Source: Deltaproteobacteria bacterium CG11_big_fil_rev_8_21_14_0_20_42_23
GTDB lineage: Bacteria > UBA10199 > 2-02-FULL-44-16
Length of the DNA: 64,000 nt
Assembly (NCBI GenBank): GCA_002796345.1
Contig: PCXC01000037.1
Span: forward strand, 58,276 to 122,275
Reading direction: 5' to 3'
The notes beneath the pieces are model-generated. The model was not told where the DNA came from. It did not search any database and saw only the letters and a program-made list of their open reading frames with translations. Below are positions 908 to 60,059 of the stretch, piece after piece (the first letter of the stretch is position 1; each line of letters starts with the position of its first letter). Both the position numbers and the translations under genes were made by a program.

Positions 908-1020
908 TTTTGTCATCCCCGTCCCCGATAAAAACATTCGAGAATAAACTCCGGCGGGATCCAGCAATTTTAAATTTGATGAGAATTGTGGATCCCCTGG
1001 TCAAGCCAGAGGATGACAGT
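908..1020. repeat. intergenic nested palindromic repeat element, compact copy (R0) of the GTCATCC...GGATGAC family
   Basis: tttgtcatcccc...ccggcgggatccagcaatttt / aattgtggatcccctgg...agaggatgacag. The same terminal and inner inverted-repeat modules occur at 16524-16715 and 29068-29279. Confidence 0.6.
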
Positions 1021-7789: not shown

Positions 7790-9052
7790 ATGAAAAAATT
7801 CTCTGACAAACTGTTAATCATTCTCATTGTTATCGCATCACTTGCAGGAGCTTTTTGTGGCTGGTTTTACGGACCCAAAATGCTTCCCATTTCCTTCCTC
7901 GGAACGTTTTTTTTAAATGCCCTTAAGATGATGGTGGTTCCCCTTGTTATGCTTTCGGTTATCAGTGGAGTAACGAGCCTTGGCGATGTGAGAAAAATTG
8001 GGAAGCTAGGTTTTAAAACCATTTCCTATTATTTCATCACCACTATTGTTGCGGTTATTCTTGGCCTTGTCTTGGTGAATATAATTGAACCCGGAATGGG
8101 AATTACCGTTGGAGAAGATATTGGCGCTGTTGTTCCAAAGCCTATTGGCATCACCGATATTTTTCTTTCGTTTGTGCATCCCAGTATTGTTGAGGCAATG
8201 TCGAGTTCAAAAATTCTGCCCATCATTATTTTTTCTCTGCTCTTTGGTGCAATGGCAACTACCTTGGGTGAAAAAGGAAAAGCATTAATCAGCATCATTG
8301 AATCTTTGAACCAAGTGATTATGAAAATGGTACATGTGATTTTATGGATTGCACCCATTGGAATTTTTGCGCTTGTAGCTGCTAAGCTTGGTGAATCTGG
8401 AGGTGGCGAAGCATTTTTTGCCGAACTTTCAAAAGTAGGTGCTTATTCTGCAACTGTTCTGATTGGCCTTTTCATTCATGCCGCTCTTGTGCTTCCGCTC
8501 ATGCTCTTCTTCACCACAAAACGAAATCCATTTCGCTATCTTGCAGGATCGGCAGAAGCACTGGTGACAGCATTTTCCACCGCATCAAGTTCAGCAACCC
8601 TTCCGGTGACAATTCAAAACGTAAAAGAAAACAACAAAGTTTCCGAAACAAGCGCCAACTTTGTTCTTCCTCTTGGCTCCACCATCAACATGGATGGAAC
8701 TGCATTGTATGAAGCTGTGGCTGCAATGTTTATTGCACAAAGTTATGACATTCATCTTGGAGTTGCTGCGCAAGCCATCATCTTTTTTACGGCGGTGCTT
8801 GCTTCTGTTGGCGCAGCGGGAATTCCTCAAGCTGGGCTTGTGACGATGGTTCTGGTTTTAACGGCGGTGGGCTTACCACTTGAAGGCATTGGAATTATTT
8901 TAAGTGTGGATTGGTTTCTTGATCGCTTCCGAACGGTGGTGAATGTATGGGGAGACTGCGTTGGCGCAGCTGTTATTGACACACTACATTTTGGGAAAGG
9001 TAAGCCTTTTTTGTCATTCCCTCATGGTTCTAGAGGGAATCTCCTCGGTTAG
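7790..9052 (+). CDS. dicarboxylate/amino acid:cation symporter (DAACS, GltP/DctA-like)
   Basis: 420 aa polytopic protein with DAACS signature regions (SSSATLP, NMDGTALYEAVAAMFIAQ). The last ~14 codons are encoded by the palindromic repeat R1. Confidence 0.8.
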   Translation: MKKFSDKLLIILIVIASLAGAFCGWFYGPKMLPISFLGTFFLNALKMMVVPLVMLSVISGVTSLGDVRKIGKLGFKTISYYFITTIVAVILGLVLVNIIEPGMGITVGEDIGAVVPKPIGITDIFLSFVHPSIVEAMSSSKILPIIIFSLLFGAMATTLGEKGKALISIIESLNQVIMKMVHVILWIAPIGIFALVAAKLGESGGGEAFFAELSKVGAYSATVLIGLFIHAALVLPLMLFFTTKRNPFRYLAGSAEALVTAFSTASSSATLPVTIQNVKENNKVSETSANFVLPLGSTINMDGTALYEAVAAMFIAQSYDIHLGVAAQAIIFFTAVLASVGAAGIPQAGLVTMVLVLTAVGLPLEGIGIILSVDWFLDRFRTVVNVWGDCVGAAVIDTLHFGKGKPFLSFPHGSRGNLLG

Positions 9053-9195
9053 TTTTGTCATTGCGAATTTGCCAAAGGCAAATGTGGCAATCTCCTCTGA
9101 CAATTGAATGAGGAGATCCTTCGTTACACTCAGGATGACAGCAAAGTGTCTGAATTGCTAGATTCCCGACAACAACATTCGGGAATGACAAAACA
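9010..9195. repeat. nested palindromic repeat element R1 (overlaps 3' end of transporter gene; downstream of adhesin gene stop)
   Basis: gtcattccctcatgg...gggaatctcctc / ctcctctgacaattgaatgaggagatccttcgttacactcaggatgacagcaaagtgt / cccgacaacaacattcgggaatgacaaaac. Shares the 40-nt arm with R3 and R4. Confidence 0.65.
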
Positions 9196-9239
9196 AAAAA
9201 CTTTTATTTCATGTAGTTATAATATTGCGAGAACACACC

Positions 9240-12200
9240 TTAAGCCACATCTTTGTTTTTCTCTTCTGCATCAACATGCTTTTCGCGGAAGTAAATGAGA
9301 CTGGCGAAGAGAAGTCCGCAAAGCGCAAGTGGTGATATGTCCGCGTTTTCACCGGAACCCAACTGACATCCGAAGTATTTATCTGAGCCACCTGATGATC
9401 CGCCAGAACCTCCACCTACAGAACTGCTTCCTCCAACGGTATATTCGAGACCATCGCCAGAGTAGATGGATCCGCTTTTTACAAGAATGTCGGAACCAAT
9501 ATCAGCTCCACTCACAATACTTACAGAAGAACTTGAGGCAACAGAGACACTTGCTGAAATGTCTTCAGAAATATCAGCAACAACTAAGCTTGATGACAAT
9601 CCTGCCGAGCCATACACAATGTAGAGTGCATTTTCTCCGCCGATGATAATATCGGCAACGCCATCTCCGGTGATGTCACCTATTGCTGATGATCGGCAGA
9701 AGAGAGGATCGCTTACATCATTATTAATAGTAACATCAGCATCATCTAAGCTAAGCGCTACGCTTAATGAGTGTGGTCCATAAACGACGTAGGCTGTTTC
9801 ACTTGTGCAGAGCAGCATGTCTTCTTCGCCGTCGTTGTTCACATCACCAAAGGCAGTGCTTTGCAGTTCACAGTTCGTGCAATCAACCGCTAAGTCTGGA
9901 TCGCTTGTAGAAAGATTGATCGTGCTTCCTGAATCTACAATAGAGTGAGTGAAAATATAAGGGAGTTCTCCAGCTGAAAGTCCGCGGGAATCTGAGTCTG
10001 TGCCGGCATCTCCCGTTGCTGTGCTTGTGAGATTAAGCTGAGCATTTGATGAAGCATTACAATCTCCAAAGTAAATACTATCGGCATCTTCAAGCACAAA
10101 TCCGTTTTGGAATGCTGAACAGGCTGGATAGTCTAAACTTCCAAACACGCTTCCTGATAAATTTGGAGAACTTCCATCCACGAGTTCATAAATATTGATC
10201 ACTCCATTGCTTGAAGCTTCTGGTGCAGAGATATACACATAATCCCCGGCAACATTGGAACCAACGGCGTGGCCAAAGCGATCTCCTGATACAGATCCAC
10301 TTACAGAGCTAAAGTCTGACGGCGTGCTTTTGCGTTCGTTCAGTTCATACGAACCTAAAAGCGTATCGGCCGTTGAGCGTGAAACATAGCATATTCCCTG
10401 CTGCGTTAAAGCTTCTGGAAAGCACACAATCACAAAACCCGCATTGGTGATAGCAATGTTGTAATCAAGAGTTGATGCTGAGCGATTTGGAACAATGATA
10501 GTAAATGCGTTGCCATCATACGTGTAGCTTAAGGTAATACTTCCTGAACCGCGCGCAGTTTCACTAACGCTGTAATTGCTTCCACTTAACACAATTTGCT
10601 CACTTGGAAGAGCACTTGTCACCGCTTGACTGACTTGCACAATGCTTACTGTGTCTGATGCCGTTTCATTATTTTCATCTGTCACCGTGAGCGTCACAAC
10701 ACTTGTTCCCGCTCCAGCTGATGTAAACACTGGCGTTGCGTTTGTAGCACTGCTGAGACTTCCGTCGCCTGAAGTGATTGCCCAACTGTACGTCACACTA
10801 CATCCGGTTGAACTTGCTCCACTTAGCGTTACCGTGTCACTTGTGTTGATCACCACATCACTGCCGGCACTAGCTACAAGTGTAGTGCTACAGGCTTCTT
10901 CCTCTTCTGCAGAAGCTGCATCTGTAATAGTTACCGTTACACTTGAAATCGAAATACCATTGTAGCCGCTATCGGAACTTGTTGCTGTGTTGGTAACTGT
11001 TGCCGAACTTCCACTCGCCTCATCCCATGTTACGGTCACAGTTTGCGGAGTATCCCAATTTGCGGTGCTGAACGTAAGCGTTGTTGGACTTACATTTACA
11101 TCTGTTCCGCCACTTGGCGTTACCGTTACACTTGCGGTTGGTTCTGCGGTTAACACAACGGTGTAGGTATCACTTGTTCCATCAACATCAACACTGGTTG
11201 ATCCACTGCTCTCTGCAATGGTAACGCCTGCAGCATCATTATCCACTACTGTAGCACTCACACTATTCACAGCAACTCCGTCATAGTCTGCATCAACACT
11301 GCTTGCACCATGGCTAATCGTACACGTGTGATTGCCATCATCCAAATCATTATCTGATGACGTCACTGATATGGTTTGCGCTGTATTCCAATTTGCACTG
11401 GTAAACGTTACTGAACTTGGTGACACATCACATGAACTCGCTGGATTTGGCGTTACCACTACGTTTGCCGTTGGCTCACTGGTAAGCACGATGGTGTAGG
11501 TGTCTGCGGTTTCTGACCCTTCCGTTACACTCGTTGCTCCACCTGACTCGGTCACACTTACTCCTGCTGAATCATCGTCGGTAATGTTAACCGTAATGTC
11601 AGTAATACTCGTCGCATTATATCCCGAGTCTGCACTGAGCACTCCGAAGCTTATCGCCGATGTATGCGCGCCCTCTGCAATATCGTCATCTACTGGCGTT
11701 ACCGTCACGGTTTGCGCGGTGTCCCAGTTGAGATTCGTAAACGTTAAGGTGAGAACGTCCACATCACTATCGGCATCGTCTGTAAGGGAAATACTCACAT
11801 TTGCGGTTGGCTGTGAATTCAAGACAACCGTAAACGTATCGGTAGTGCTGCCTTCGGTGACGTTTGTGACACCACCTGATTCAGCTACCGTTATACCAGC
11901 AGTGTCATCATCCGTAATGGTAATGGTTTGCTGTTGGGTACCCGATTCACTTCCGTTGGTCACTCCACTAATATCTAAAATAATCGTTTCGTCACTTTCA
12001 TCGATGCTATCCGTTGATGAGAACACGGTCGTGGTACCCGTTGTACTTCCGGCGCTAATGCTAATGGAATTTGAAAAGAGCGTATAGTCAGTGCCAGAAC
12101 CTGTTGCGGTACCACTTGCAGCCAAGTCAACCGTCACGTCTTTACCTGAAGCAGTGCTTAAGGTTGCAGTTACCGTTGCAAAACCTGCTCCTTCTGAAAT

Positions 12201-15200
12201 GGTTGCACTGCTCACACTCAAGCTTACCGTTGGAGGATCGTCATCATCGGTAATGGTCACCGTTACTTGCTGCGCTCCTGATTCTGTTGCGTTGGTCACA
12301 TCACTCACATCAACGATAACGGTTTCGTTATTTTCATCCAACGTATCTAAGGCAGAACTTATACTCGCCGTGCCCGTTGTGCTTCCTGCTGAAATGGAAA
12401 TAGATGTAGTTGAAAGAGTATAATCTGTTCCCGAACCTGTTGCGGTTCCGCTTGCGGACAAGGTCACCGTTACATCTCGGCCCGAAGCTGCACTTAACGT
12501 GGCGGTAAGCGTTGAACTTCCACTTGTTTCTGAAATGCTCTCGTTATTTACGGCAATGCTCACCGTTGGCGCATCGTCATCATCGGTAATGGTGACGGTG
12601 ATTTGCTGTGTTCCCACTTCTGTTCCGTTGGTCACACTGCTGATATCAACAATCGCCGTTTCATCATCTTCATCTAATGTATCTAAGGCCGAACTGATCG
12701 TAACTGTCCCTGTTGTATTTCCTGCTGAAATGGAAATGGAACTGCCAGAAAGCGTATAGTCAGTGCCTGAACCTGTTGCCGTTCCACTTGCTGATAAGTT
12801 GATCGTCACATCTTGGCCTGATGCATCACTTAACGTTGCCGTTACCGTTGCGCTTCCACTTGTCTCGGAAATGCTAATGTTATCTACCGATAACGTCACG
12901 GATGGTGCATCGTCATCATCTGTAATGGTCACCGTTACTTGCTGTGTTCCAGACTCTGTACCATTCGTCACGCTGCTGATATCAATAATCACCGTCTCGT
13001 CAGTTTCGTCGAGTAAATCTTGTTCTGAAAAAATTGTGGCCGTGCCCGTTGTTTCTCCTGATGAAATCGTAATCGAACTTGATGAAAGCGTGTAGTCTGT
13101 TCCGCTTCCTGTCGCCGTTCCACTTGCAGACAAGTTTACCGTAACATCTCGGCCCGATGCTGCACTTAACGTGGCGGTAATGGTTGAGGTTACTGCACCT
13201 TCTCCTATTGTTGCACTATCTACCGCAATGCTCACCGTTGGAGCGTCGTCATCATCTGTAATGGTCACCGTTACTTGCTGTGTTCCAGACTCTGTACCAT
13301 TCGTCACGCTGCTGATATCAATAATCACGGTTTCATCCGCCTCATCTATTGTATCTAAGGCTGAACTTATACTCGCCGTGCCCGTTGTGTTTCCAGCTGA
13401 AATGGAAATGGAGATAGTTGAAAGCGTATAATCTGTTCCCGAACCTGTCGCTGTTCCGCTTGCGGATAAATTTACCGTTACATCTTGGCCCGAAGCTGCA
13501 CTTAACGTGGCGGTTACGGTTGAACTTCCACTCGTTTCCGAAATACTTGCATTGTTTACCGCAATGCTCACCGTTGGAGCTGCATCATCATCCGTAATGG
13601 TCACCGTTACTTGCTGCGTTCCATCTTCTGTTCCGTTGGTAACGCTATCAACATCAACAATCACTGTTTCGTTCGCTTCATCGGTTGTATCTGTAGCTGC
13701 TGTTATCGTCGCTGTTCCTGTTGTGTTTCCGGCGGTAATGGAAATTGAAGTAGTGGAAAGCGTATAGTCCGCGCCCGAACCGGTTGCGGTTCCGCTTGCT
13801 GAAATGGTTACAGTTGTAGCTAAACCTGAAGCTGCACTTAAAGTTGCGGTTACGGTGGAAACCCCGCCCGTTTCGGAAATGCTGGCATTATCCACGGCAA
13901 TACTCACCGTTGGGGCTGTGTCGTTATCCGTAATATTGACCGTAACATCAGCGATCACAATCGCATTATAATTTCCATCTGCGCTTGATGCTGTATGGCC
14001 CACAGCGCTACTATGATCGCCTTCGTACAGCGTGTCGTTTGTTGCTGTAACCGTTACCGTTTGCGGGGTATCCCAATTTCCTGTGGTGAAGGTTAACGTG
14101 GCCGGACTTGTGGTACATCCACTGTCGGTATCTTCGCAAGCTGGCGTAATCACTACATCGGCCGTTGGCAAAGCATCCAGCACCATCGTGTACGTATCGG
14201 TTGATCCACCTTCGGTGACGTCGGTTGAGGCAACTGACTGAGTAATCGTCACACCTGCAACAGCATCTGTAGCACCATTCACAATCGCCACACTTTTTAA
14301 CTCTGGCGTGTAACTGGTGCTGTCTGATTCTAAAAGTGTTTTATATTGGAAGTATTGGCTCGCAGCACAAGCAGTTAAGCCTGAAATATCAACTGAAGGA
14401 AGCGCAATGGTATTTGTAGTGGATTCTGTAAAGTACGCACTTGTGCTACTATCTGGCCCCATGAAGCTTTCGCCTAAACATGCGCTGTCATTACAACAAC
14501 GAGCTTGAAATTTTTGACGAAGAGCGCCGCGTTTGTACATGTCAAGCACTTCTGTACTAGTGAGCTCTTCATCCCAAATACTCATTTCATCAAGGGTACC
14601 ATTGAAATAAGCGCGTGAAGTTGAAATGTCTTGGTCACCAATGCGTAAAGGAGCAATGGTATCAATCATTTTTGAATAGCTATTATTCGTAGGTGTAATA
14701 TTTGCTGAAGCACCATTGATATAAAAAGTTAATCCGCCTGTTGTTTTACTTCCATCATAGGTAGCACACACATGCTGCCAAGTGCCGGTAACCACTGAAT
14801 TTGTATCCGTTTGCAAACCAAGGTAGGCTGTTCCACCACCATTACTATACAGATAAAACTGAAATTTTTTATTCGTAAGCGTACCAAACTGCCATTCATA
14901 ATATTTTGTGGAACTCACCGTTTTCATTTTAGAAGCCATCATCGCGGTTTGATCAACATCACTATTAAGCCATGTACACACACTAAACGCTGTGTCTGTC
15001 GTACCATCTGTGAATGAAAGCTCTGCCTTGTCACCGCAATCTGCATATGAAGTACTGCCATCAAAATCGATGGCATCGCTTACTTTGCTTTCAGAATGAG
15101 CATAGCTAAGTGCATTTGCAGTACAGTTAAAGTGATTTCCCGAATCATCCCGTAAATCACCCGAGGCTTCATTCATGTGGTAAAGCGCCAAAAGATTGGT

Positions 15201-16271
15201 GGGATCAAAATTACCAGTGGTATATGCACTTTCTGTATTGTTGTCTGCTGTACCAGCTGCAATGCTTGCAACTTCATTAGACGATAAAGCACGAGAAAAA
15301 ATGGCAACATCATCCATACTTCCAGTAATAGGCGTTTTGCCTGAATCTGTACTTCCAAGCATAAGAGGTTGTGTGGTGTCGTAAATGTCTGCTGGTATGG
15401 TACCTCCACAAGAAAGTGTCAGCGCTGTACCATCTCGGTATATTTTCACCTTATCGGTGTTATTCACACCGGATCCATCGTACACAACAGCAAGGTGATA
15501 CCATCTTCCTACCGTAAGATTTGCATCTGTCGTCGAGCAATAGTTCGCACCAGCATCAGATGAACTGCTTGAAGCGAAAAAAACGAGCTCATCGGAAGCT
15601 GATAAGTCTGTACGAAAGAGGATGGAATTGTTTGTTGAGTTCGTAGGATTCCATTTGGTAACAATATTTTTATCTATGGCTAAGCTCGTTTGTTTCATCC
15701 ACAACGACAGAGTAAGCGCAGTACCTTGAGACTCGGTTATATTTCCAAAATCAACTTCATCATCTACACCATCAAAACTAAGAGCAGTGTTATAGACACC
15801 AAGTGATGAATAGGTTACGCCTGTGGCAGTACCATCATAGCCATTTCCAGAGGTATCACCAATCACCCCCGAGCTTTCATTCATCAACGCACGTATTGCC
15901 AAGCCTGTTGTGTCAAAGGAATCGTCTTCAATAATGGGAGTACTTTGACTGCTGGGCAATTCTTTCCCGGCAGGTCTGTTGGGAACCCAAGCAAGTGTAG
16001 ACCACAACACATCGGCTTTAGCATCTTTGATGTCGGAAATGTACGTACCGTCAGTTCCATTTGTAGATTGTTCAACCCAGCTATTCGCAGCATCCCACTG
16101 TACGGCAACATCGTCGTCACCGGTATCGATGTTAAAGGTTCCAGAGCTGTTATCGGTGAGAGTGCTCGCTTGAGCTACAGGAGTATAGATAAGGGACGAC
16201 ATCAGATACGTCATCAGCACAAGATACGTAAATCGATGCTTGCGAAAAAAATGTTGAAACCGACTCAACAT
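9240..16271 (-). CDS. giant secreted surface protein / adhesin: signal peptide, LamG-like lectin domains, ~10 Calx-beta-like repeats, FG-GAP-like repeats, Gly/Ser linker and C-terminal Cys-containing TM sorting-signal-like tail
   Basis: Single 7 kb ORF. Start taken as ATG 16271 (GGGGGGAG 5 nt upstream); the track start at 16295 is a TTG. Signal peptide MLSRFQHFFRKHRFTYLVLMTYLMSSLIYTPVAQA. LamG-type motifs DDVAIFSRALSSNEV and LDEMSIWDEELTSTEV. Six near-identical 112-aa units ending VTVTITDDDD plus four longer Calx-beta-like units. FG-GAP-like GDITGDGVADIIIGGENALYIVYG. C-terminus ...GGGSGGSSGGSDKYFGCQLGSGENADISPLALCGLLFASLIYFREKH. Confidence 0.85.
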   Translation of the reverse strand: MLSRFQHFFRKHRFTYLVLMTYLMSSLIYTPVAQASTLTDNSSGTFNIDTGDDDVAVQWDAANSWVEQSTNGTDGTYISDIKDAKADVLWSTLAWVPNRPAGKELPSSQSTPIIEDDSFDTTGLAIRALMNESSGVIGDTSGNGYDGTATGVTYSSLGVYNTALSFDGVDDEVDFGNITESQGTALTLSLWMKQTSLAIDKNIVTKWNPTNSTNNSILFRTDLSASDELVFFASSSSSDAGANYCSTTDANLTVGRWYHLAVVYDGSGVNNTDKVKIYRDGTALTLSCGGTIPADIYDTTQPLMLGSTDSGKTPITGSMDDVAIFSRALSSNEVASIAAGTADNNTESAYTTGNFDPTNLLALYHMNEASGDLRDDSGNHFNCTANALSYAHSESKVSDAIDFDGSTSYADCGDKAELSFTDGTTDTAFSVCTWLNSDVDQTAMMASKMKTVSSTKYYEWQFGTLTNKKFQFYLYSNGGGTAYLGLQTDTNSVVTGTWQHVCATYDGSKTTGGLTFYINGASANITPTNNSYSKMIDTIAPLRIGDQDISTSRAYFNGTLDEMSIWDEELTSTEVLDMYKRGALRQKFQARCCNDSACLGESFMGPDSSTSAYFTESTTNTIALPSVDISGLTACAASQYFQYKTLLESDSTSYTPELKSVAIVNGATDAVAGVTITQSVASTDVTEGGSTDTYTMVLDALPTADVVITPACEDTDSGCTTSPATLTFTTGNWDTPQTVTVTATNDTLYEGDHSSAVGHTASSADGNYNAIVIADVTVNITDNDTAPTVSIAVDNASISETGGVSTVTATLSAASGLATTVTISASGTATGSGADYTLSTTSISITAGNTTGTATITAATDTTDEANETVIVDVDSVTNGTEDGTQQVTVTITDDDAAPTVSIAVNNASISETSGSSTVTATLSAASGQDVTVNLSASGTATGSGTDYTLSTISISISAGNTTGTASISSALDTIDEADETVIIDISSVTNGTESGTQQVTVTITDDDDAPTVSIAVDSATIGEGAVTSTITATLSAASGRDVTVNLSASGTATGSGTDYTLSSSSITISSGETTGTATIFSEQDLLDETDETVIIDISSVTNGTESGTQQVTVTITDDDDAPSVTLSVDNISISETSGSATVTATLSDASGQDVTINLSASGTATGSGTDYTLSGSSISISAGNTTGTVTISSALDTLDEDDETAIVDISSVTNGTEVGTQQITVTITDDDDAPTVSIAVNNESISETSGSSTLTATLSAASGRDVTVTLSASGTATGSGTDYTLSTTSISISAGSTTGTASISSALDTLDENNETVIVDVSDVTNATESGAQQVTVTITDDDDPPTVSLSVSSATISEGAGFATVTATLSTASGKDVTVDLAASGTATGSGTDYTLFSNSISISAGSTTGTTTVFSSTDSIDESDETIILDISGVTNGSESGTQQQTITITDDDTAGITVAESGGVTNVTEGSTTDTFTVVLNSQPTANVSISLTDDADSDVDVLTLTFTNLNWDTAQTVTVTPVDDDIAEGAHTSAISFGVLSADSGYNATSITDITVNITDDDSAGVSVTESGGATSVTEGSETADTYTIVLTSEPTANVVVTPNPASSCDVSPSSVTFTSANWNTAQTISVTSSDNDLDDGNHTCTISHGASSVDADYDGVAVNSVSATVVDNDAAGVTIAESSGSTSVDVDGTSDTYTVVLTAEPTASVTVTPSGGTDVNVSPTTLTFSTANWDTPQTVTVTWDEASGSSATVTNTATSSDSGYNGISISSVTVTITDAASAEEEEACSTTLVASAGSDVVINTSDTVTLSGASSTGCSVTYSWAITSGDGSLSSATNATPVFTSAGAGTSVVTLTVTDENNETASDTVSIVQVSQAVTSALPSEQIVLSGSNYSVSETARGSGSITLSYTYDGNAFTIIVPNRSASTLDYNIAITNAGFVIVCFPEALTQQGICYVSRSTADTLLGSYELNERKSTPSDFSSVSGSVSGDRFGHAVGSNVAGDYVYISAPEASSNGVINIYELVDGSSPNLSGSVFGSLDYPACSAFQNGFVLEDADSIYFGDCNASSNAQLNLTSTATGDAGTDSDSRGLSAGELPYIFTHSIVDSGSTINLSTSDPDLAVDCTNCELQSTAFGDVNNDGEEDMLLCTSETAYVVYGPHSLSVALSLDDADVTINNDVSDPLFCRSSAIGDITGDGVADIIIGGENALYIVYGSAGLSSSLVVADISEDISASVSVASSSSVSIVSGADIGSDILVKSGSIYSGDGLEYTVGGSSSVGGGSGGSSGGSDKYFGCQLGSGENADISPLALCGLLFASLIYFREKHVDAEEKNKDVA
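11900..13915. repeat. tandem in-frame coding repeats, six units of 336 bp, inside the adhesin gene
   Basis: Antisense + strand ORFs at 12091, 12763, 13171 and 13507 are mutually similar and offset by multiples of 336 nt. The protein shows six ~112-aa APTVSIAV(D/N)NASISET...VTVTITDDDD units. Confidence 0.8.
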
Positions 16272-16523
16272 GAAACTCCCCCCAAATCCCTTCAAAAACT
16301 GTTGTAATGATTGAAAAAAGGATACTCTCTTTTAAGACAAAAAACCACCATTATTTTCTTATTTTGATACTTGTGACAAAAATAGTGTTTTTAAACACTT
16401 ATTATTTTATCATTATGAGAATTAATTGGTAAAACACTGTTTAAAGGGATTGGGAAGGCCTTTTGGGGAAAAGAGGAAGTGGGAGGTTTCTGGGGTGGGG
16501 AGGCATCAACAGTTTTTTTTATT

Positions 16524-16715
16524 TTTGTCATCCTCTGCCTTGAGCAGGCCTGCCGGCAGGCAGGGGATCCAGAATTTTTCTTTTCTAATGCCCTTAGACA
16601 GCACATCACTTGAATTGCTGGATCCCCGCCAAAATCATGCGAGGATGACAAAAAACAAAATTGGCAGAGGAGATTGCTTCACTTCGTTCACAATGACAAT
16701 GAGTTGACTAAATTT
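16524..16715. repeat. nested palindromic repeat element R2 (between adhesin gene start and actF stop)
   Basis: tttgtcatcctctgcc...gcctgccggcaggcaggggatccagaattttt...ttgaattgctggatccccgcc...gcgaggatgacaaaaaac...cttcacttcgttcacaatgacaatgagttgactaaatttc. The tail motif is shared with R3. Confidence 0.65.
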
Positions 16716-16721
16716 CTAGCT

Positions 16722-17900
16722 CTACAGGTGATGGGCGATGCCCTCTTCTAGCCAAGGATCGCCTTTGGCCACAACCGGAATACGGCTTAAGAGTTTTAGG
16801 ACGCAGAGCAAGAAAAGAGAACCAAAGCTTAAGAACATGGCCACTTCTGTCCAGCCAAAAACTGGAGCTTCTTTGAAGAACGTGGGGAAGACTAGCCAGT
16901 ACACGTCAATCCACTGTACCAACAAAAGCCACACCGCCACAAAGAGAAGAACATTTTCTTTTTTCTTCGCCGCTTGAGAAATGAGCATGAAGAAAGGAAT
17001 GATGAATTTAATTATACCAAGTGAGATAGAGAGAGATTTCCAGCCACCGTGAAATCGCTCGATGTAGAAAAATGTTTCTTCCGGCAAGTTGGCATACCAA
17101 ATGAGCATGAACTGTGAAAAGCCGATGTACGCCCAGAAAATCACAAAAGCAAAAAGCAATTTTCCCAAGTCGAACAAATGTCTCTCGTTGATAAAATGTT
17201 GAAGGTAACCAAGTTTGCGCAACACAATGGTGAAAATGGTAAGCGTTGATAAACCCGCAAGAAATAAAATCACCCAACAGTAAATGCCAAAAATGGTACT
17301 AAACCAGTGTGGAGAAAGTGACATCATCAAGTCAAAACTTGCAAAGCTAAAGAGCCATCCAAAAAATAAAATGAATGGCGCAGAAAGATAAGAATTTCTT
17401 TTGCTGAAACGAGGATCGCGTGTTTCATCTTGTTTAAGTGAATGCTTCAACATAAAAAACCCGCAAACACCCACCAACAAAAGCAATGCGAACTGACGAA
17501 TGGTGAAGAATGGTATATTCAAGTACGATTGTTTTGCGCTGAGAATTGCATCGTTCATCACCACATCATGATGCGTCCACTCATAAAGATGATGAACTCC
17601 AAAAAGTAACACCACAAACAAAATCGCCATCACCGGAACAAAAGCTACAAATGATTCTGCGATTCTGCGAATGGGAATGCTCCACTTTGATGCAGTGATA
17701 TACTGAAGTGCAACAATGAATGTTCCCGAAAGACCAATGGCTCCCCAAAAATAATAGTTGGTCAAAAAGTTGGCCCACGCGCGAACGGGATTTGACTGAA
17801 GCATCAACACAAAACTCACAATGCCAAGAACAAACAATGCTGTAAGGATGCCTTTGAATTTGGGAGAGACTTCTAATTTTTTTACAGTTGGTATCATCAT
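16722..17900 (-). CDS. actF: Alternative Complex III subunit ActF (NrfD/PsrC-like polytopic membrane protein)
   Basis: 392 aa, ~10 TM helices. Last gene of the actABCDEF order. Confidence 0.7.
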   Translation of the reverse strand: MMIPTVKKLEVSPKFKGILTALFVLGIVSFVLMLQSNPVRAWANFLTNYYFWGAIGLSGTFIVALQYITASKWSIPIRRIAESFVAFVPVMAILFVVLLFGVHHLYEWTHHDVVMNDAILSAKQSYLNIPFFTIRQFALLLLVGVCGFFMLKHSLKQDETRDPRFSKRNSYLSAPFILFFGWLFSFASFDLMMSLSPHWFSTIFGIYCWVILFLAGLSTLTIFTIVLRKLGYLQHFINERHLFDLGKLLFAFVIFWAYIGFSQFMLIWYANLPEETFFYIERFHGGWKSLSISLGIIKFIIPFFMLISQAAKKKENVLLFVAVWLLLVQWIDVYWLVFPTFFKEAPVFGWTEVAMFLSFGSLFLLCVLKLLSRIPVVAKGDPWLEEGIAHHL

Positions 17901-17914
17901 GGTTTTTTCAGTAT

Positions 17915-18496
17915 TTACTGTTGTTGTTTCAATTTTTTCAAATGCATCTCAAGCCGTTTTACATCGCTTGGTTTTGGATCGTCAGCACGCTGCAATGCGC
18001 GAAGATAGTGAGTTATAGCCCAACGCTCTTCGGGCAAAGTTTGAGAAGCATAACTTGGCATGAGGTTTTGGCCTGTTGAAATCACGTGAAAAATTTCACC
18101 GTCTTCCCACGATTTAATTTTATCCGAAAGTAAAGATGGCGGCCGTGGAAATTTTGGAACAATCGTGCCATCTCCCTCGGCACTGTGTCCATGACAAACA
18201 ACGCAGTAGATTTCGAACGCTTTTTTTCCGCGAGCAAACACTTCAGTGGTGCGAGGCAAAGGATTGTTGAGTGCATTTTTTGCACGCTCACGTTCATCGG
18301 CTGCGTAAGGATAAACATCAACATTGCGCGCAACGGTGCCTTCTACCGCTGTTTGCGGAGCTGCTTCTTGCGCCTTCACAGAAATTTGATCCATCATGTC
18401 TGGCATGTATTCGAATGCTGGTTTATCAGCACTTGAACAAGCCACACAAAGTGAAACAAGTGAAAAACTAATCAAGATGTTTAATTTCTTGTGCAT
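17915..18496 (-). CDS. actE: Alternative Complex III subunit ActE (monoheme cytochrome c, probable lipoprotein)
   Basis: Single CVVCHGH haem motif. Start probably M18 (MHKKLNILISFSLVSLCVAC...) rather than the track start 18547. Overlaps actD 3' end. Confidence 0.7.
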   Translation of the reverse strand: MHKKLNILISFSLVSLCVACSSADKPAFEYMPDMMDQISVKAQEAAPQTAVEGTVARNVDVYPYAADERERAKNALNNPLPRTTEVFARGKKAFEIYCVVCHGHSAEGDGTIVPKFPRPPSLLSDKIKSWEDGEIFHVISTGQNLMPSYASQTLPEERWAITHYLRALQRADDPKPSDVKRLEMHLKKLKQQQ

Positions 18497-18974
18497 TGCA
18501 TTCCTTAAAAACACTGTCGATTTTTTCTTCATGATAATGAACATCACTACTATCTACAAAAAGTGCGAACTGATCATCGGTGATGCGTGGATCAAGTTTT
18601 CGCGTTTTCAATCCGTGGTGAATGATCATCGCCCACAAAATAAGCACTGTCGTGACTCCGCTGAACAAGATAGTAAGCTCAAACGTAACGGGAATAAATG
18701 AAGGCCAGCTAAAGGCCGGCTTTCCACCAATGTTGAGATGCCAGTCAACTGATTGCGTCCAATACTGAAACAAAAGCCCAAGCGATCCGCCAGTGAGGCC
18801 AAAGAAAAGTGCGGAATACGAAATCCAAGAACGCTTAATCCCCATGGCGGCTTCCATTCCGTGAATGGGAAACGGACTAAATGCATCCATCTTTTTGATA
18901 TTGAGATGGCGCAGTCTTTTTGCAGCCACCAAGACTTCATGCGGATCATTGAAAAGAGCTATTTTCCCTTTCAT
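18468..18974 (-). CDS. actD: Alternative Complex III subunit ActD (membrane subunit)
   Basis: 168 aa, two TM helices. ATGA overlap with actC stop. Confidence 0.65.
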   Translation of the reverse strand: MKGKIALFNDPHEVLVAAKRLRHLNIKKMDAFSPFPIHGMEAAMGIKRSWISYSALFFGLTGGSLGLLFQYWTQSVDWHLNIGGKPAFSWPSFIPVTFELTILFSGVTTVLILWAMIIHHGLKTRKLDPRITDDQFALFVDSSDVHYHEEKIDSVFKECNAQEIKHLD

Positions 18975-20344
18975 CAGTGACCTCCCTTATGGGCATTGGG
19001 ACTTGGCATAATTGACTTCACTTCAAACATACAAATAGTGGGAAGCACTCGACAGAAAAGGAGGAAGAACATCATGAAGAAACCAAAACTACCAATGGTA
19101 ATTCCCCAATCGTGATCTGTCATTTTATAGTATCCCCAATTTGCGGGAAGGAAATCGCGATGCAATGAAGTAACTACAATCACAAAACGCTCGAACCACA
19201 TTCCAATGTTGGCAAAGATTGATGCTACAAACATTACCGGAATGGAGCGTCGAAGTTTTTTGAACCAGAAAAGTTGTGGCACAATCATGTTGCAGCTTAC
19301 CATAATCCAGTAGGCCCAAGCATACGGCCCAGCAATACGGTTGAGGAAAGCAAAGCGTTCGTAAATATTTCCGCTATACCAAGCGGTGAAAAGCTCGATC
19401 ATGTAGGCATAGCCAACAATCATTCCCGTAACCAACATCACCTTGTTCATTTTTTCCATGTGGCCAATAGTGATGTAATCTTTGAGGTTAAACACTTCAC
19501 GAACAATAGTAAGCAACGTAACCACCATGGCAAAGCCAGAGAACACGGCACCTGCAACGAAGTATGGTGGAAAAATAGTGGTATGCCAGCCAGGCACAAC
19601 TGAAACGGCAAAGTCAAAACTTACAATTGAATGCACCGAAAGAACAAGTGGAGTACTCAAGCCTGCAAGAAGCAAATACACCATTTCATAGTGCGTCCAC
19701 TTGCGGGCGGAACCTCTCCAACCAAAGGACATAACGCCATAGATAAGTTTTCGAATCTTATTTTTTGCGCGGTCGCGAACACTTGCGATATCGGGGATTA
19801 AACCTGTGTACCAAAAGAGAAAAGAAATAGTGAAGTAGGTTGAAACCGCAAACACATCCCACAAAAGTGGTGAGTTGAAGTTCACCCAAAGGTTTCTTTC
19901 ATTGGGATAAGGAAATAACCAAAACGCAAGCCAAGGACGACCGGTGTGAATGAGCGGAAAAATTCCAGCAGTCATCACGGCAAAGATAGTCATAGCCTCA
20001 GCTGAACGGTTGATGGCTGTTCTCCACTTTTGGCGGAAGAGAAACAAAACTGCAGAAATTAATGTTCCGGCGTGACCAATACCAACCCAAAAAACGAAGT
20101 TGGTGATGAAGACTCCCCAACCAACAGGATGATTAAGACCTAAGGTTCCAAGGCCAACACGAAACATGTTCGTTGCATAACAAAGCCCCACCAAAAAAAT
20201 GAGCACCGAAAGCACAAAACAAATCCACCACTTTTTCATCGGCAAAGATTCGAGTGGCTTGCACACCCTTTGCCCAATATCAGCGTAGCTTTTCCCCGGT
20301 GTCACTAAGGGTTCTTGAACGAGTTGGTTTCCTTGAATATCCAT
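18974..20344 (-). CDS. actC: Alternative Complex III subunit ActC (NrfD/PsrC-like quinol-interacting membrane subunit)
   Basis: 456 aa polytopic membrane protein of the NrfD/PsrC type. Directly downstream of the Mo/FeS subunit. Confidence 0.75.
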
Positions 20345-20355
20345 ATCGATTTTAC

Positions 20356-23322
20356 TTACACATTTCTAATTTTGGTTAAATACGTCACCACTGGACGTGT
20401 GTTAAGCTCTGCAAGTACATGATAGCCGCGTTGTGACGCTGCCATTTTTGCCACTTGGCTTTCTTTCATGTTTAAGTCACCAAACGTAATGGCTTGCGCT
20501 GGGCAGGTTTGCTGGCAAGCGGTTTTAATTTCGCCGTCTTTTAATTCTCGTTTTTCAATAATGGCATCATTTCGTTTTTCTTGAATCCGCTGAATACAGA
20601 AGGTACATTTTTCCATCACGCCTCTGCTGCGTGTGGTGATGTCTGGGTTCAAAACCTGATTCATCGGTTCTTTTATGCTAAGCGTTTGTTCAAAAAAGTT
20701 GAAGCGTCTCACTTTGTAAGGGCAGTTGTTTGCACAATACCGGGTTCCAACGCAACGATTGTAGCTCATCATGTTCAAGCCATCATCGCTGTGGAACGTT
20801 GCTAGTGTTGGGCAAACGGTTTCGCAAGGTGCATTGCTGCACTGCTGACAAGTCATAGGCTGATGTGAAACATTTGGATTTGCAGTTTTTCCTTTTTCAC
20901 TGCTGTAGTAACGATCGATGCGAATCCAGTGCATTTCCCGTCCGCGAATCACCTGCTCTTTGCCTACGACGGGAATATTATTCTCCGCCTGACAAGCAAC
21001 TACACAAGCGCTGCAACCAGTACATGCGTTGGTATCAATCACCATTCCCCAACGGTGGCCTTCGTATTTGCGTTCTTCCCACATGCTTGGAAGTTCTGCG
21101 TGTTTTTTTATTCCAGCATGAGGATTGTGCTGAAACTCTTTCCATGTTGCATCGGAAAAAATATCGTGGGCACGGTTTTCAAGTTCATGATGTCCTTGCG
21201 TGCAAGCAAGCAGTGCCGTTTTTCCTGTTTTTTCGAGCTCAACTTTTATTCCATTCCAGCTTGGAGTTTGATGCGCGTACGATTGAAAAGGATAAACCTG
21301 CATTCCATGAGGAGCCGCAAAGCCAAGCGCAACAGCTGCTGTAGCGTCATGCAATTTTGGCTGAATGTGAACTGGAAGCTCGGCAGAAAACGTTTCACTT
21401 TTTACTTTCACTACATCACCTTCGCGAAGTGAAAGCTTTGTTGCTGTTGCAAGAGAAAGGGAAACAACATTTTCCCACGTAAGTTTTGTGACGGGATCTG
21501 GAAGTTCCAGAAGCCAGCTGTTTGTATTATTTCTTCCATCGTAGAGAGAAAGACTTGGATAAAGCGCCAAGCTAAGTTCTGCAGATGAAGAAAGTTGTGG
21601 CAAGTTTTTCAACGCTGAAGGGTTGAAGGTTTCAGCAGAAGCTATTCTGCCGTGATCGTTTCTTTTGGAAGCAAACGCATCAACAAATCCCATCTTCAAG
21701 GCATCTTTCCAAGAAAGAGAACTTGAAACTCGAGGAAGCACTTCGCTTTTCCAATTGTGCTTCAACACTTCGTGATAATTTGATTCGCTGCCAGACCAAT
21801 GCAGCAAAGAATCTTGACATGATCTACCTTGGTGAAGCGGCGCAATTACAGGCTGCACAAGGGTATAAAGTCCGCGCTCTGGATTTGCATCGCCCCAAGC
21901 TTCAAGGTAATGCGTGCCAGGACAAACGACATGGCTTTGTGCGGAGGTTGCCGTAAAATAATCTGCGCAAGAAATAACAAGCCCCACTTTTTTCAGCGCT
22001 TCTTCGCAGTTTAATTCTGCGGGAAGTGTAAAGAGAGGATCTGCATCGGCGACAATAAGCACTTCCACTTCACCAGCGTGCATTTCTGCCACAAGGTGTT
22101 TGAGTTCTTCAAACGAACTGCCCACGTAATCGCGAGGAGCAAGCGTCCAGTCTAGCGTTACACCATCATTGGCAAGTGTAGAGTTGATAAAGTTTACCGC
22201 CACTTGAAGCAGCACAGCATCTTTTGCATTTGGATTGGCTCCAACTACAAGACCTGTTCCGCGTGAAGCAACAAGTTCTTCTGCTGTTTCTACAATGTGA
22301 GATGCAGGAAAATTAATTTTGCTTTCAAGTTTTTCTGGAGCATAGCTTCGTAAAGAGCTTGCTACACTTGCATTTCCGGTTCGCCTTGCAACTTCATAAG
22401 CAAGACTTAGCGCAACAAAAATTTCATCTCCCGCTTTCACCGGAACAAACATATCTGCATTTGTACCCGTTACGGTTGGAACAGATTCAAAGGCAATGAA
22501 GCGTGACATTTTTCCCGCGTCAACATTTCTGCCTTCGGAAAATCCAGCCATATTGCGAACTGGATTCATCCAATTGCCAAGGAAATCGGCGCCAAAAGAA
22601 ACAATGACTTTTGCCTCTTCAAAACGATAGCGTGGCAAGAGTGATTTTCCGTACGAAAGCTTTGCCGCTTCAACCATTTCATTTGGAAAAACAGAATCGT
22701 ATGAAATGCTTGCTGCGTTGTAGGTATTTTCAAAACTTCGCAGTACTTTTTGCGTAGTAGGAGAGCTGCTTACACCCGTAAGCACTCTTATTTTTCCGCC
22801 TGTTTTTTTCACGGCATCAAGCTTGGCGATGATGTGCTTGTCGAGGTCTTCCCAGTTGCTTTCTTTTAGCGTTCCATTTTGCACAAAGCTTGGAGCTTTG
22901 ATTCTATCGGGATGATACAAATCCAGCAAACTGGCTTGCGCTCTGGCTGAGAGGCCCGTTGCATTGAGAGGAGCATCAACATTTGGCTCAAGTTTAACCG
23001 GACGGCCTTCGCGCGTTCTGACTAAAACTGCATAAGAGGAACTTCCATCTTCAAAACTAGAAGCGTACCAAACCGGAACACCAGGAATCACACCTTCTGG
23101 CTTGTTGATGTAAGGCATAATTTTTTCAACAGGTCTTCGTGTACAGGCAGCGCCCGCCATAGCGATACTTGCCGCCATTACCTTTAAAAAGTCGCGGCGT
23201 TCCATGCCGGACATTTCGGCTTTCTGAGGAGGCTCTGCAAACTCTTTTCCCGTACGAGCTTCAAACTCTGCCGTTTGCTCGAGCTCTTCGATGCTTTTCC
23301 AAAAGGTCACATTTTTCTTCAT
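20356..23322 (-). CDS. actB: Alternative Complex III subunit ActB (molybdopterin-oxidoreductase-like domain fused to 4Fe-4S ferredoxin domain, Tat signal)
   Basis: Start likely M16 ([20 protein letters not shown]..., typical ActB N-terminus). Twin-arginine motif [19 protein letters not shown]-terminal Cys clusters [38 protein letters not shown]. Confidence 0.85.
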
Positions 23323-23323
23323 A

Positions 23324-23851
23324 TTAATAATGACAGCTTTCACAATGCGTTGGAGCATTTTTCTCACGATGGCAATCGATACAAAATCCCATCTGTAATG
23401 TTTTTACTTGGCTAACCCGTTCCATACTTCCCACATCACCATGACACTGCGTACAATCAAGCCCAGCCGCAATATGCCGTTCGTGGGTAAACCGAACATG
23501 ATCTGGAAGATCGTGCACTTTTATCCACTCGAGAGGCTGCCCATTGGCATACATATCGCGAAGCTTTTGAATATAAGGACTGTCCAGCTTCACTACCTGG
23601 TGACAGTTCATGCAAATATTCATAGCAGGCACAACAGCGTGCTTCGATTTATCAACTCCCACATGACAATACTGGCAAGGGATTTGATTATCTCCGGCGT
23701 GAAGTTTATGGCTAAAGGGAATCGGCTGCTTTGGAGCATAACCAGTGTTGTCGCCAAGTTTCACCAAACTCCGCACTCCAAATGCCAATAAAATGACCGG
23801 AAGAGATAAAAGAGAAAGAAATAAAATTTTCTGGAAGCACTTACCCTTCAA
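23324..23851 (-). CDS. actA: Alternative Complex III subunit ActA (pentahaem cytochrome c)
   Basis: Five CxxCH motifs: CQYCH, CMNCH, CTQCH, CIDCH, CESCH. N-terminal signal/anchor. Confidence 0.85.
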   Translation of the reverse strand: MKGKCFQKILFLSLLSLPVILLAFGVRSLVKLGDNTGYAPKQPIPFSHKLHAGDNQIPCQYCHVGVDKSKHAVVPAMNICMNCHQVVKLDSPYIQKLRDMYANGQPLEWIKVHDLPDHVRFTHERHIAAGLDCTQCHGDVGSMERVSQVKTLQMGFCIDCHREKNAPTHCESCHY

Positions 23852-24122
23852 TGATTTCCCCTTGGAACAACCTCTCGTTGAAATAATGTGGGCGCTATCT
23901 ACCCTCCTTGAAAATTTCTGTCGAGGAAAAAATCGAGATCAAATGAAAAAGTCTCAAACAGGAAATAAAGGACTCTCCGCCTCTAAAAAGTCTGAAGAAA
24001 ACAAACTCTATTACGAACCCAAAAGAGGAGTTGCTTTCAAGCATACCTGTCACCTTCAACGCAAAAGAAAGCCCCCAGCTTTTTCCTTGCCTGTCCTCTA
24101 AGATCTTGTTAGAGGCCCTCAC

Positions 24123-29067: not shown

Positions 29068-29279
29068 TTTGTCATCCTCGCGCAGGCGGCCTGCCTGCCG
29101 GTCAGGCAGGGGATCCAGCAATTCAAACACTTTGCTGTCATCCTGAGTGGAACGAAGGATCTCCTCTGACAATTTTGCTTTTGTTATAGTCGAATGCTTA
29201 AAGTGTTTGAGGAGATCCTTCACTTCGTTCAGGATGACAAAACAGGGAATTGTTAAATGACAATGAGTTGACTGAATTC
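29068..29279. repeat. nested palindromic repeat element R3 (inside the cox/cta operon, between subunit-IV::cyt c and ctaA)
   Basis: gtcatcctcgcgcaggcggcctgcctgccggtcaggcaggggatccagcaattcaaacac tttgctgtcatcctgagtggaacgaaggatctcctc tgacaatt...gaggagatccttcacttcgttcaggatgacaaaacag...aatgacaatgagttgactgaattc. Confidence 0.7.
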
Positions 29280-31962: not shown

Positions 31963-32172
31963 TTTTGTCATCCTTCCGCCTAAGGTGAAGGGATCTAGGA
32001 ATTAAAACACTTTGCTGTCATCCTGAGTGTAACGAAGGATCTCCTCATACAATTTGGGTATTTGACCATAGCAAAATCAGAATTGCCCGAGGAGATCCTT
32101 CTCTTCGTTCAGGATGACACAGAATTGTGGATCTCCGCGTTCCTGCCAAAGGCAGGCAAGCGCGAGGATACA
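31963..32172. repeat. nested palindromic repeat element R4
   Basis: gtcatccttccgcctaaggtgaagggatctaggaattaaaacac tttgctgtcatcctgagtgtaacgaaggatctcctc...gaggagatccttctcttcgttcaggatgaca...cctgccaaaggcaggcaagcgcgaggat. Confidence 0.7.
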
Positions 32173-59945: not shown

Positions 59946-59965
59946 GCTTTTCCTTTGTTAATCTC

Positions 59966-60040
59966 TGTTGTCATCCTGAACGTAGTGAAGGATCTCCTCG
60001 CAAATACAGTAGATTCTTCGCTTTGCTCAGAATGACAAGA
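59966..60040. repeat. palindromic repeat element R5 (short copy) between ftsL and ftsI inside the dcw cluster
   Basis: ttgtcatcctgaacgtagtgaaggatctcctcg...cttcgctttgctcagaatgacaag. Same GTCATCCTGA / GAAGGATCTCCTC modules as R1, R3 and R4. Confidence 0.6.
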
Positions 60041-60059
60041 AGCTAATTATCCACTCACT

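Follow-up and report, generated by a model that had tools for sequence, protein, structure and literature searches.

A giant surface-protein gene between two hairpin-module clusters in a groundwater deltaproteobacterial genome

The described system that lies closest to the repeats treated here is that of Neisseria, in which the NTS repeat, CGTCATTCCCGCGMAVGCGGGAATCYRG, embeds dRS3 (PMC11893778, Nat Commun 2025). SsnA, a small GIY-YIG single-strand DNA nuclease (cd10448), cuts beside the NTS hairpins and modulates transformation, NTS-gene-NTS arrangements surround membrane and virulence genes, and a degenerate ‘Ssn-related motif’ (SRM) pattern, HGTCWYN(0-2)YYVSBRHN(0-5)WNVSBRGN(0-2)RNCYNB, has been published (PMC11893778). 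The SRM is oriented, with a conserved GTC(A/T)(C/T) head, a hairpin and an R-N-C-Y tail, and as a rule it also flanks the small ssn gene. That paper was found by a literature search on sequence strings of hairpin modules in a 64,000-nt stretch of DNA (the window) from Deltaproteobacteria bacterium CG11_big_fil_rev_8_21_14_0_20_42_23, positions 58,276 to 122,275 of contig PCXC01000037.1. Within the window, a giant surface-protein gene is bracketed by two clusters of these modules, R1 and R2, and the initial annotation had read the arrangement as a recombination or mobilisation hotspot that could hold a horizontally acquired or phase-variable adhesin cassette. In statistical terms the bracketing is unremarkable, and it is no mark of a mobile or switchable cassette. 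The arrangement is probably that of a native surface-protein gene beside two unexceptional clusters of hairpin modules of the NTS/SRM type, which settle at the 3' ends of genes.

Other repeat families provide further points of comparison. The REP and BIME elements of enterobacteria and pseudomonads are imperfect palindromes with a GT[AG]G head, and their partner is a RAYT (IS200/IS605-like TnpA) gene that is itself flanked by REPs. The window repeats resemble them as short imperfect palindromes of alternating orientation that cluster in intergenic gaps at gene 3' ends, turn over quickly in content at conserved sites and serve as substrates of rearrangement. They differ from REP/BIME in their head, which is GTCAT and not GT[AG]G, and in the partner gene found in metagenomes, which encodes a GIY-YIG nuclease and not an IS200/IS605-like TnpA. 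Membership in the REP/BIME family with a RAYT partner was considered and rejected, as the GTCAT head occurs in all modules, no transposase-like family recurred near the module in 120 metagenome loci and, among the genes scanned against Pfam, none in or beside the studied interval was transposase-like. The Neisseria intergenic mosaic elements (NIMEs), Correia elements and ‘minimal mobile elements’ are mosaic intergenic arrays of short units, with dRS3-like inverted repeats as bounds, which lie beside variable surface genes and are implicated in recombination. The window clusters are similarly mosaic intergenic arrays of short repeat units. In contrast to those elements, no strain-to-strain replacement of the bracketed gene is seen in the window, the flanking arrays are too dissimilar to promote exchange and the window repeats are not known to function as phage integrase targets.

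Module clusters and their placement at gene 3' ends

The window repeats have a common anatomy, exceed chance expectation and sit at gene 3' ends. They are mosaics of short modules, usually inverted sets on both strands, and not single repeats. The frame of a module is GTC-[AT..stem]-loop-[stem'..AT]-C, with loops of 9–30 nt and several stem types, and the GTCAT head, the AT..../....AT stem and the 3' C are present in 17/17 intergenic modules. These 17 were located by a structural scan of the window in six intergenic clusters, together with three probable chance matches in coding sequence, for a total of 20 modules compared to 6.9 ± 2.3 in shuffled sequences. The head motif TTTGTCATYCC was matched 14 times (3.5 ± 1.8 in shuffles).

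R1 (9007–9200) lies between the convergent sodium:dicarboxylate symporter (SDF) gene and the giant gene and is composed of four modules, with two (+) modules (9013–9041 and 9057–9092) on the side of the (+) SDF gene and two (−) modules (9115–9139, an A-module, and 9161–9189) on the side of the (−) giant gene. As originally described, it lies just past the stop codon of the giant gene and overlaps the last codons of the transporter: it starts within the SDF gene, over its last ~16 codons, and ends 40–50 nt short of the giant gene stop codon. R2 (16516–16700) lies just 3' of actF, the last gene of the alternative complex III (act) operon, and has three modules (16527–16569(+), 16621–16649(−) and ~16672–16697(−)). 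It starts 22 nt past the actF stop codon and ends 245 nt upstream of the giant gene ATG, in agreement with the earlier estimate of ~250 nt. The other four clusters occur at 900–1017, between convergent genes (912–961(+) and 991–1017(−)); at 29068–29240, between a COX4/cytochrome c gene and ctaA (29071–29115(+), 29137–29161(+) and 29214–29238(−)); at 31964–32170 (31967–31995(+), 32017–32041(+), 32094–32118(−) and a degenerate module at ~32128–32170(−)); and at 59963–60040, between ftsL and ftsI of the dcw cluster (59970–59994(+) and 60012–60036(−)). The outer ends of the clusters are inverted TTTGTCAT heads, i.e., TTTGTCAT...ATGACAAA termini.

Clusters occupy six of the 19 gaps of at least 40 nt in the window: both of the two convergent gaps, four of 13 tandem gaps and none of the four divergent gaps. 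Every one of the six sits in a gap that contains a gene 3' end, and in the convergent gaps each module points away from the gene that precedes it. For the four clusters that were folded, z-scores ranged from −4.4 to −7.6 (R1, −64.8 kcal/mol, z = −4.4; R2, −68.1 kcal/mol, z = −4.5; 29068–29240, z = −6.6; 31964–32170, z = −7.6). Both the constant proximity to a gene 3' end, with purely divergent gaps never used, and the very stable predicted folds are consistent with a role at the RNA level, in which the clusters would be 3' stem-loops that terminate transcription or shield the SDF, giant-gene and act mRNAs from exonucleases, as in the case of enterobacterial REP/BIME. The T-runs of the clusters precede the hairpins rather than follow them, no convincing intrinsic terminator was found in R1 or R2 by a terminator scan and the whole window had no Rfam match at the gathering threshold, all of which argue against such a role. 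While this makes the RNA-level role unlikely as the explanation of the clusters, it is compatible with the presence of ordinary modules at gene 3' ends and does not exclude it.

Bracketing of a gene by such clusters is easily obtained. For six occupied junctions placed at random among 51, the probability that some single gene is bracketed is 0.48, and the value is 0.56–0.79 if the eligible gaps are limited to those of at least 40 nt, or to those that also hold a 3' end. A second case occurs in the window itself, where ctaA (COX15), ctaB (UbiA) and a gene for a 294-aa hypothetical protein are bracketed by the clusters at 29068–29240 and 31964–32170, with 113-nt inverted arms that are 77% complementary, a pair better matched than R1 and R2. 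The longest exact identity between R1 and R2 is 10 nt in direct and 13 nt in inverted orientation, and the similarity between the two amounts to 75–85% over 26–64 nt. The best partner of R1 is the copy at ~32000 (42 nt shared), where 31990–32054 is 92% complementary to the R1 core at 9102–9166. Apart from R1 and R2, the occupied sites flank ctaA/ctaB, ftsL/ftsI and small hypothetical genes, without a bias toward surface-protein genes within the window. The bracketing is ordinary because the same repeats also flank housekeeping genes, and the giant gene, which is monocistronic, is bracketed because a gap containing a 3' end lies on each side of it. The flanking repeats do not mark an island, and given the poor match of R1 to R2 the proposed mobilisation of the gene as a repeat-bounded unit is not supported. 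Repeats on both sides of a long monocistronic gene are no sign of a mobile or phase-variable adhesin cassette, and the case advises caution where an ‘island’ is deduced from repeats.

The giant gene: product, composition and sister species

The ORF at 9240–16295 on the minus strand (stop codon 9240–9242) is a real gene, in line with the initial annotation. Its likely start, the ATG at 16271, agrees with the public gene calls and yields a product of 2343 aa that consists of a signal peptide, two Laminin_G_3 domains, a Calx-beta array, a PKD-like domain, FG-GAP repeats, a Gly/Ser linker and a C-terminal hydrophobic helix with a basic tail. The Calx-beta array is encoded by tandem 336-nt (112-aa) units on the minus strand (11572–13946; direct-repeat families D1–D4), the copies of which are 66–80% identical. 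Pfam matches six stretches of the array, and the direct-repeat families indicate six to eight units: the 300-nt family has six copies (11873–13852) and the shorter families reach eight. The giant Calx-beta/LamG/FG-GAP surface proteins of environmental bacteria are similar in their multi-kilobase genes, Calx-beta arrays of ~112-aa units, lectin-like LamG domains and FG-GAP repeats; the window protein differs in its Sec signal at the N-terminus and in a C-terminal anchor that is unclassified. The C-terminal tail, ...GGSGGSSGGSDKYFGCQLGSGENADISPLALCGLLFASLIYFREKH... (window 9240–9440), resembles a tripartite sorting signal, with a GC motif, a hydrophobic helix and a basic cluster. Neither the whole protein nor its last 86 residues had a match in NCBIfam, and no named C-terminal sorting or secretion signal was recognised.

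A search of the full-length protein against a database of 5.8 billion proteins, in which 8000 word-sharing candidates were scored, returned no full-length homologue among the matches listed, and those matches were confined to the Calx-beta array; the search also missed known close fragments (the protein's own cluster and the sister-species fragment described below), a limit of word-based candidate selection. Upstream of the gene, a promoter scan identified five sigma-70-like matches in the scanned region compared to 1.1 expected. Four of these fall on the minus strand at 16350–16433, an AT-rich region between R2 and the ATG that is recognisably orthologous in the sister locus.

The composition of the gene offers no sign of the recent horizontal acquisition that had been suggested. 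Compared with its flanks, the giant gene has a typical GC content at third codon positions (GC3; 0.373 versus 0.391 ± 0.065 for other genes), and its synonymous codon usage ranks among the nearest to the window mean. The GC content of the whole gene is 0.46, with an excess at codon position 2 only, because the protein is rich in Thr, Ser, Gly and Ala. Among the genes scanned against Pfam, there was no transposase or integrase in or beside the R1–R2 interval. The locus is also uniform within the population. The exact SDF protein is present on at least 24 contigs (ENA, JGI, Logan and NCBI), all of which are 100% identical to the window across the locus and carry the same number and orientation of repeats, and at the assembly level no variation between 989 and 19052 was observed in any public contig. 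The copy number of the tandem units is constant across all public contigs. Three NCBI metagenome-assembled genomes, GCA_002793395.1 among them, contain the locus (protein accessions PIR25648.1, PJA18860.1 and PJC65071.1). A run of seven T residues (T7) in codons 6–8 of the giant gene is the same in all of the at least 24 contigs, and T7 is also found there in the sister species, where it encodes Phe-Phe.

The sister species is represented by a 2.9-kb Logan contig (L035; SRR26387399), with an ActF that is 91% identical and an orthologous giant gene directly after actF. The giant proteins of the window and the sister species share 73% amino-acid identity over 405 residues (BLASTP). Synonymous divergence (dS) between the two is 1.34 for the start of the giant gene and 1.47 for actF, both values being near saturation, and nonsynonymous divergence (dN) is 0.246 and 0.054, respectively, for a dN/dS of 0.18 compared to 0.04. 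With the same dS as actF and a higher dN, the giant gene has therefore been co-inherited with its neighbour and is less constrained. From composition and this comparison, it can be regarded as a native, lineage-specific surface-protein gene and a putative adhesin.

An element that begins with the same head but differs in module content occupies the R2 site of the sister species. The sister contig also carries an extra hairpin module in the actE-actF gap (L035:1–58), where the window has 14 nt only (17901–17914); between close species, a module within an operon has been either gained or lost. Judged from these two places, the sites therefore persist while the modules turn over: the R2 site was kept and module content changed between sister species.

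The Ssn connection and alternative explanations

The modules of the window are like the Neisseria NTS/dRS3 and SRM elements in being oriented hairpins in which the GTCAT head is conserved, the stem starts with AT and the tail reads ...ATC, and in having many intergenic copies, which likewise stand on both sides of genes, a surface-protein gene included. One module of R2, 16618–16650(−), fits the published SRM pattern exactly (0.11 matches expected), and contig L037, from a Rifle relative, contains a near-canonical GTCATTCCCGCGTAGGCGGGAATCCAG. Unlike the described elements, in which loops are 3–5 nt, the window modules have the long loops noted above, several stem types coexist and 16 of the 17 modules fail the SRM expression.

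The best-conserved module type of the window, the A-module (GTCATCCTGA..GAAGGATCTCCTC), provides an additional connection. Its pattern occurs in at least 120 metagenome contigs (L038–L157; 25-nt consensus GTCATCCTGAGCGAAGCGAAGGATCTCCTC) from many environments and with a GC content of 0.28 to 0.76. By unbiased clustering of all ORFs within 1.5 kb of the A-module, only one genuine protein family recurred among the neighbours, a single-domain GIY-YIG protein of ~77 aa (Pfam PF01541) that was found at six loci, a median of 9 nt away; the remaining groups of recurrent ORFs proved to be translated copies of the module, and no transposase-like family recurred near the module in the 120 metagenome loci. 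The A-module lies at most 80 nt from the GIY-YIG gene in five of the six loci, and on both sides of the gene in L151 (examples are L151:471–888, L099:1548–1817 and L068:311–603). A PDB search with a module-adjacent GIY-YIG protein gave only a weak UPF0213 match. The most conserved module type thus adjoins small GIY-YIG genes in unrelated metagenomes and, by analogy with Neisseria, the module family appears to behave like an Ssn partner. As the A-module stands beside GIY-YIG genes yet falls outside the SRM search pattern, the partnership between Ssn and its repeats may be broader than has been catalogued. Repeats of NTS/Ssn architecture are abundant here in a poorly known groundwater lineage.

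A native gene beside ordinary clusters would then come about as follows. The giant gene is probably transcribed alone from its AT-rich promoter region. R1 and R2 are most likely not the ends of a cassette; they belong to a genome-wide family of hairpin modules, which has at least six clusters locally and the members of which accumulate as mosaics in intergenic gaps that contain a gene 3' end. An Ssn-type single-strand DNA nuclease, encoded in another part of the genome, may recognise the modules and perhaps also spread them. It should be noted that several points weigh against this explanation. Had the giant gene been specified beforehand, the probability that it would be bracketed is 0.012–0.14, which is not negligible as evidence of an association, the giant gene being a post hoc choice for this value; and the NTS repeats of Neisseria do cluster around surface-protein genes (PMC11893778). 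The SRM regular expression fits one of the 17 modules, and the A-module fails it. Neither the 64-kb window nor ~35 kb of additional flanking sequence of this genome yielded a GIY-YIG/Ssn gene with a motif regular expression or with tblastn, metagenome-derived queries included. Lastly, co-inheritance is drawn from dS values near saturation, and the only close relative is the 2.9-kb contig L035, so that the comparison covers the R2 side.

Some of the same observations would favour a functional, selected bracketing. In an NTS-gene-NTS arrangement, an Ssn-type GIY-YIG nuclease would cut incoming or exposed single-stranded DNA at both flanks and modulate allelic replacement or repair by transformation, and the giant gene would be uncoupled in recombination from its conserved neighbours and free to diverge faster. 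The modules have the architecture of NTS/SRM, with the one exact SRM match, and those on both strands at each flank would allow either strand to be cut; the giant gene does evolve faster than its neighbour, and around membrane and virulence genes such clusters have a precedent (PMC11893778). Fast evolution is expected of any surface protein, the remaining clusters adjoin ctaA/ctaB, ftsL/ftsI and small hypothetical genes, and no ssn gene was found in the ~100 kb of genome read, and this functional arrangement is judged improbable. Should it be true, this way of controlling gene flow, only recently described, would also operate in a deltaproteobacterial lineage of groundwater that is uncultivated and would involve a cosmopolitan module, GTCATCCTGAGCGAAGCGAAGGATC, missed by the SRM pattern.

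The repeats are recombinogenic in this population. In sample ERZ27293412 of the Crystal Geyser series, a rearrangement is documented by both of its reciprocal junctions, on contigs L026 and L158 (lengths of 116 and 151 kb). From 989 rightwards L026 matches the window exactly, and its left flank (OmpA, BamD, TsaD and KsgA) is unrelated; L158 has the left flank of the window and the whole element, and becomes unrelated directly beyond the module. Common to both junctions is the 31-nt module GTGGATCCCCTGGTCAAGCCAGAGGATGACA at window 989–1017 (L026:3130–3235; L158:10530–10660), and all samples besides this one show the window arrangement. A repeat of 31 nt should not mislead an assembly made at k = 141. 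The pair of contigs is most simply explained by a population-level inversion between inverted module copies at 989–1017, because two reciprocal junctions occur in one sample on long contigs; a single module was the crossover point of a large population rearrangement. The initial annotation is partly supported in this respect: the inverted-repeat family is real and recombinogenic, with a breakpoint of a population-level inversion at 989–1017, while the bracketing of the giant gene is nothing unusual.

A further observation concerns the movement of the repeats. An 81-nt two-module unit at L110:1782–1862 is 96% identical to the ftsL-ftsI element (window 59968–60048), in an unrelated gene context on a contig with a GC content of 39%, which suggests that whole composite two-module units move or are exchanged. 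The repeats might accordingly be MITE-like, i.e., non-autonomous two-module transposons with TTTGTCAT...ATGACAAA ends, moved by a transposase with no Ssn connection, that landed neutrally beside the giant gene. The inverted heads at the outer ends of every cluster, the L110 copy in its unrelated context and the presence or absence of a module at the actE-actF gap between sister species would fit this explanation. No target-site duplications are evident, and both length and internal content vary from site to site. The halves of an element are also independent, as the L026 junction splits two halves of one element, and among the 120 metagenome loci it is GIY-YIG genes, and not a transposase, that are associated with the modules. 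MITE-like transposition is therefore given the same low credence as the functional NTS-gene-NTS arrangement.

A recently acquired or mobilisable 7-kb cassette that ends at R1 and R2, like a composite element or a ‘minimal mobile element’ of Neisseria, is largely refuted and very improbable. Inverted matches between R1 and R2 exist (pairs I1, I3 and I4), no full-length homologue appeared outside the species pair among the matches listed, and the tatC-act interval is empty in one relative (L170) and differently filled in another (L037). Against these stand terminal repeats that are unmatched, with at most 13 nt of exact identity and, for R1, a better pairing at ~32000; a composition that is native; a sister species with the gene in place and a dS equal to that of actF; the lack of presence/absence polymorphism among the public contigs; and no transposase or integrase in or next to the interval, which is empty only at family-level distance. 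An adhesin that varies in phase or antigenically, whether by inversion of the segment between R1 and R2 or by slippage in the tandem 336-nt units or the T7 run, is effectively refuted at the assembly level by the constancy of orientation, unit number and T7 run in contigs from many samples, by the T7 of the sister species and by tandem units that are only 66–80% alike.

The tatC-act junction and neighbouring genes

The interval that holds the SDF and giant genes lies between tatA, tatB and tatC, on the plus strand upstream of the SDF gene, and the act operon, which runs from actF to actA on the minus strand beyond the giant gene and has the cox, ctaA and ctaB genes on its far side. The actF-like gene (16722–17900, minus strand; 392 aa), which adjoins ActE, ActD, ActC and ActB, served as the anchor of the comparative analysis. 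ActF has 6755 homologues and, wherever the context was checked, all sit in act operons.

Deeper comparisons were made with relatives of ~57% ActF identity. Contig L170 has the order pabB-pabC-tatA-tatB-tatC-actA...actF-SCO1-cox-ctaA-ctaB, all on one strand, and contains neither the SDF gene, the giant gene nor the modules; there is also no intergenic gap before ctaA, where the window holds the cluster at 29068. In L036 and L168, actF is followed by SCO1, as in L170, and in L037 (ActF 56%) a different gene lies between tatC and actA. The act operon of the window (16722–24122) is inverted relative to L170:2146–9967, L036 and L168, and the actA of the window faces SCO1 divergently. The L170-type arrangement is likely the older state. 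From the gene orders, the act operon would have been turned around in the window lineage, and the SDF and giant genes added at the tatC-act junction, before the split from the sister species; the interval is an old, remodelled junction with gain of accessory genes and not a current cassette. The earlier reading of an accessory-type region between tat and act is thus borne out by the absence of the SDF gene, giant gene and repeats from L170 and the different filling of L037, and fails as to a present-day cassette. The presence or absence of the giant gene in relatives, which was to separate these possibilities, depends on distance: it is present directly after actF in the sister species and is not at the tatC-act junction of L170. 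A large gene beside the act operon in L036 was considered as a relative of the giant gene and proved to be unrelated. The gap between actE and actF in L037 is filled by hairpin modules, which also lie within the called gene for an ActE-like cytochrome c (9186–9286 and 9881–9964); the public call for this gene is probably over-extended across the modules.

The SDF gene (7790–9052, plus strand; Pfam PF00375, 1.5e-124; stop codon 9050–9052) has itself been altered by R1. Its product has a 16-residue C-terminal extension, KPFLSFPHGSRGNLLG, which, together with the stop codon, comes from the first R1 module (window 9005–9052), and six SDF homologues of 401–406 aa terminate ~16 residues earlier. The C-terminus of the transporter has been rewritten by a repeat module. 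No close relative of the SDF protein was found among the species-representative genomes, with a best match of 58% identity, and the SDF protein search returned no sister-species orthologue, the next best match being 65%.

Beyond the window, ~6–10 kb to the left of its start, contig L159 (1–3800) contains a cluster of small genes with HTH_17, HTH_3, Peptidase_S24 (repressor-like) and DUF1376 domains, suggestive of a remnant prophage immediately beyond the analysed stretch.

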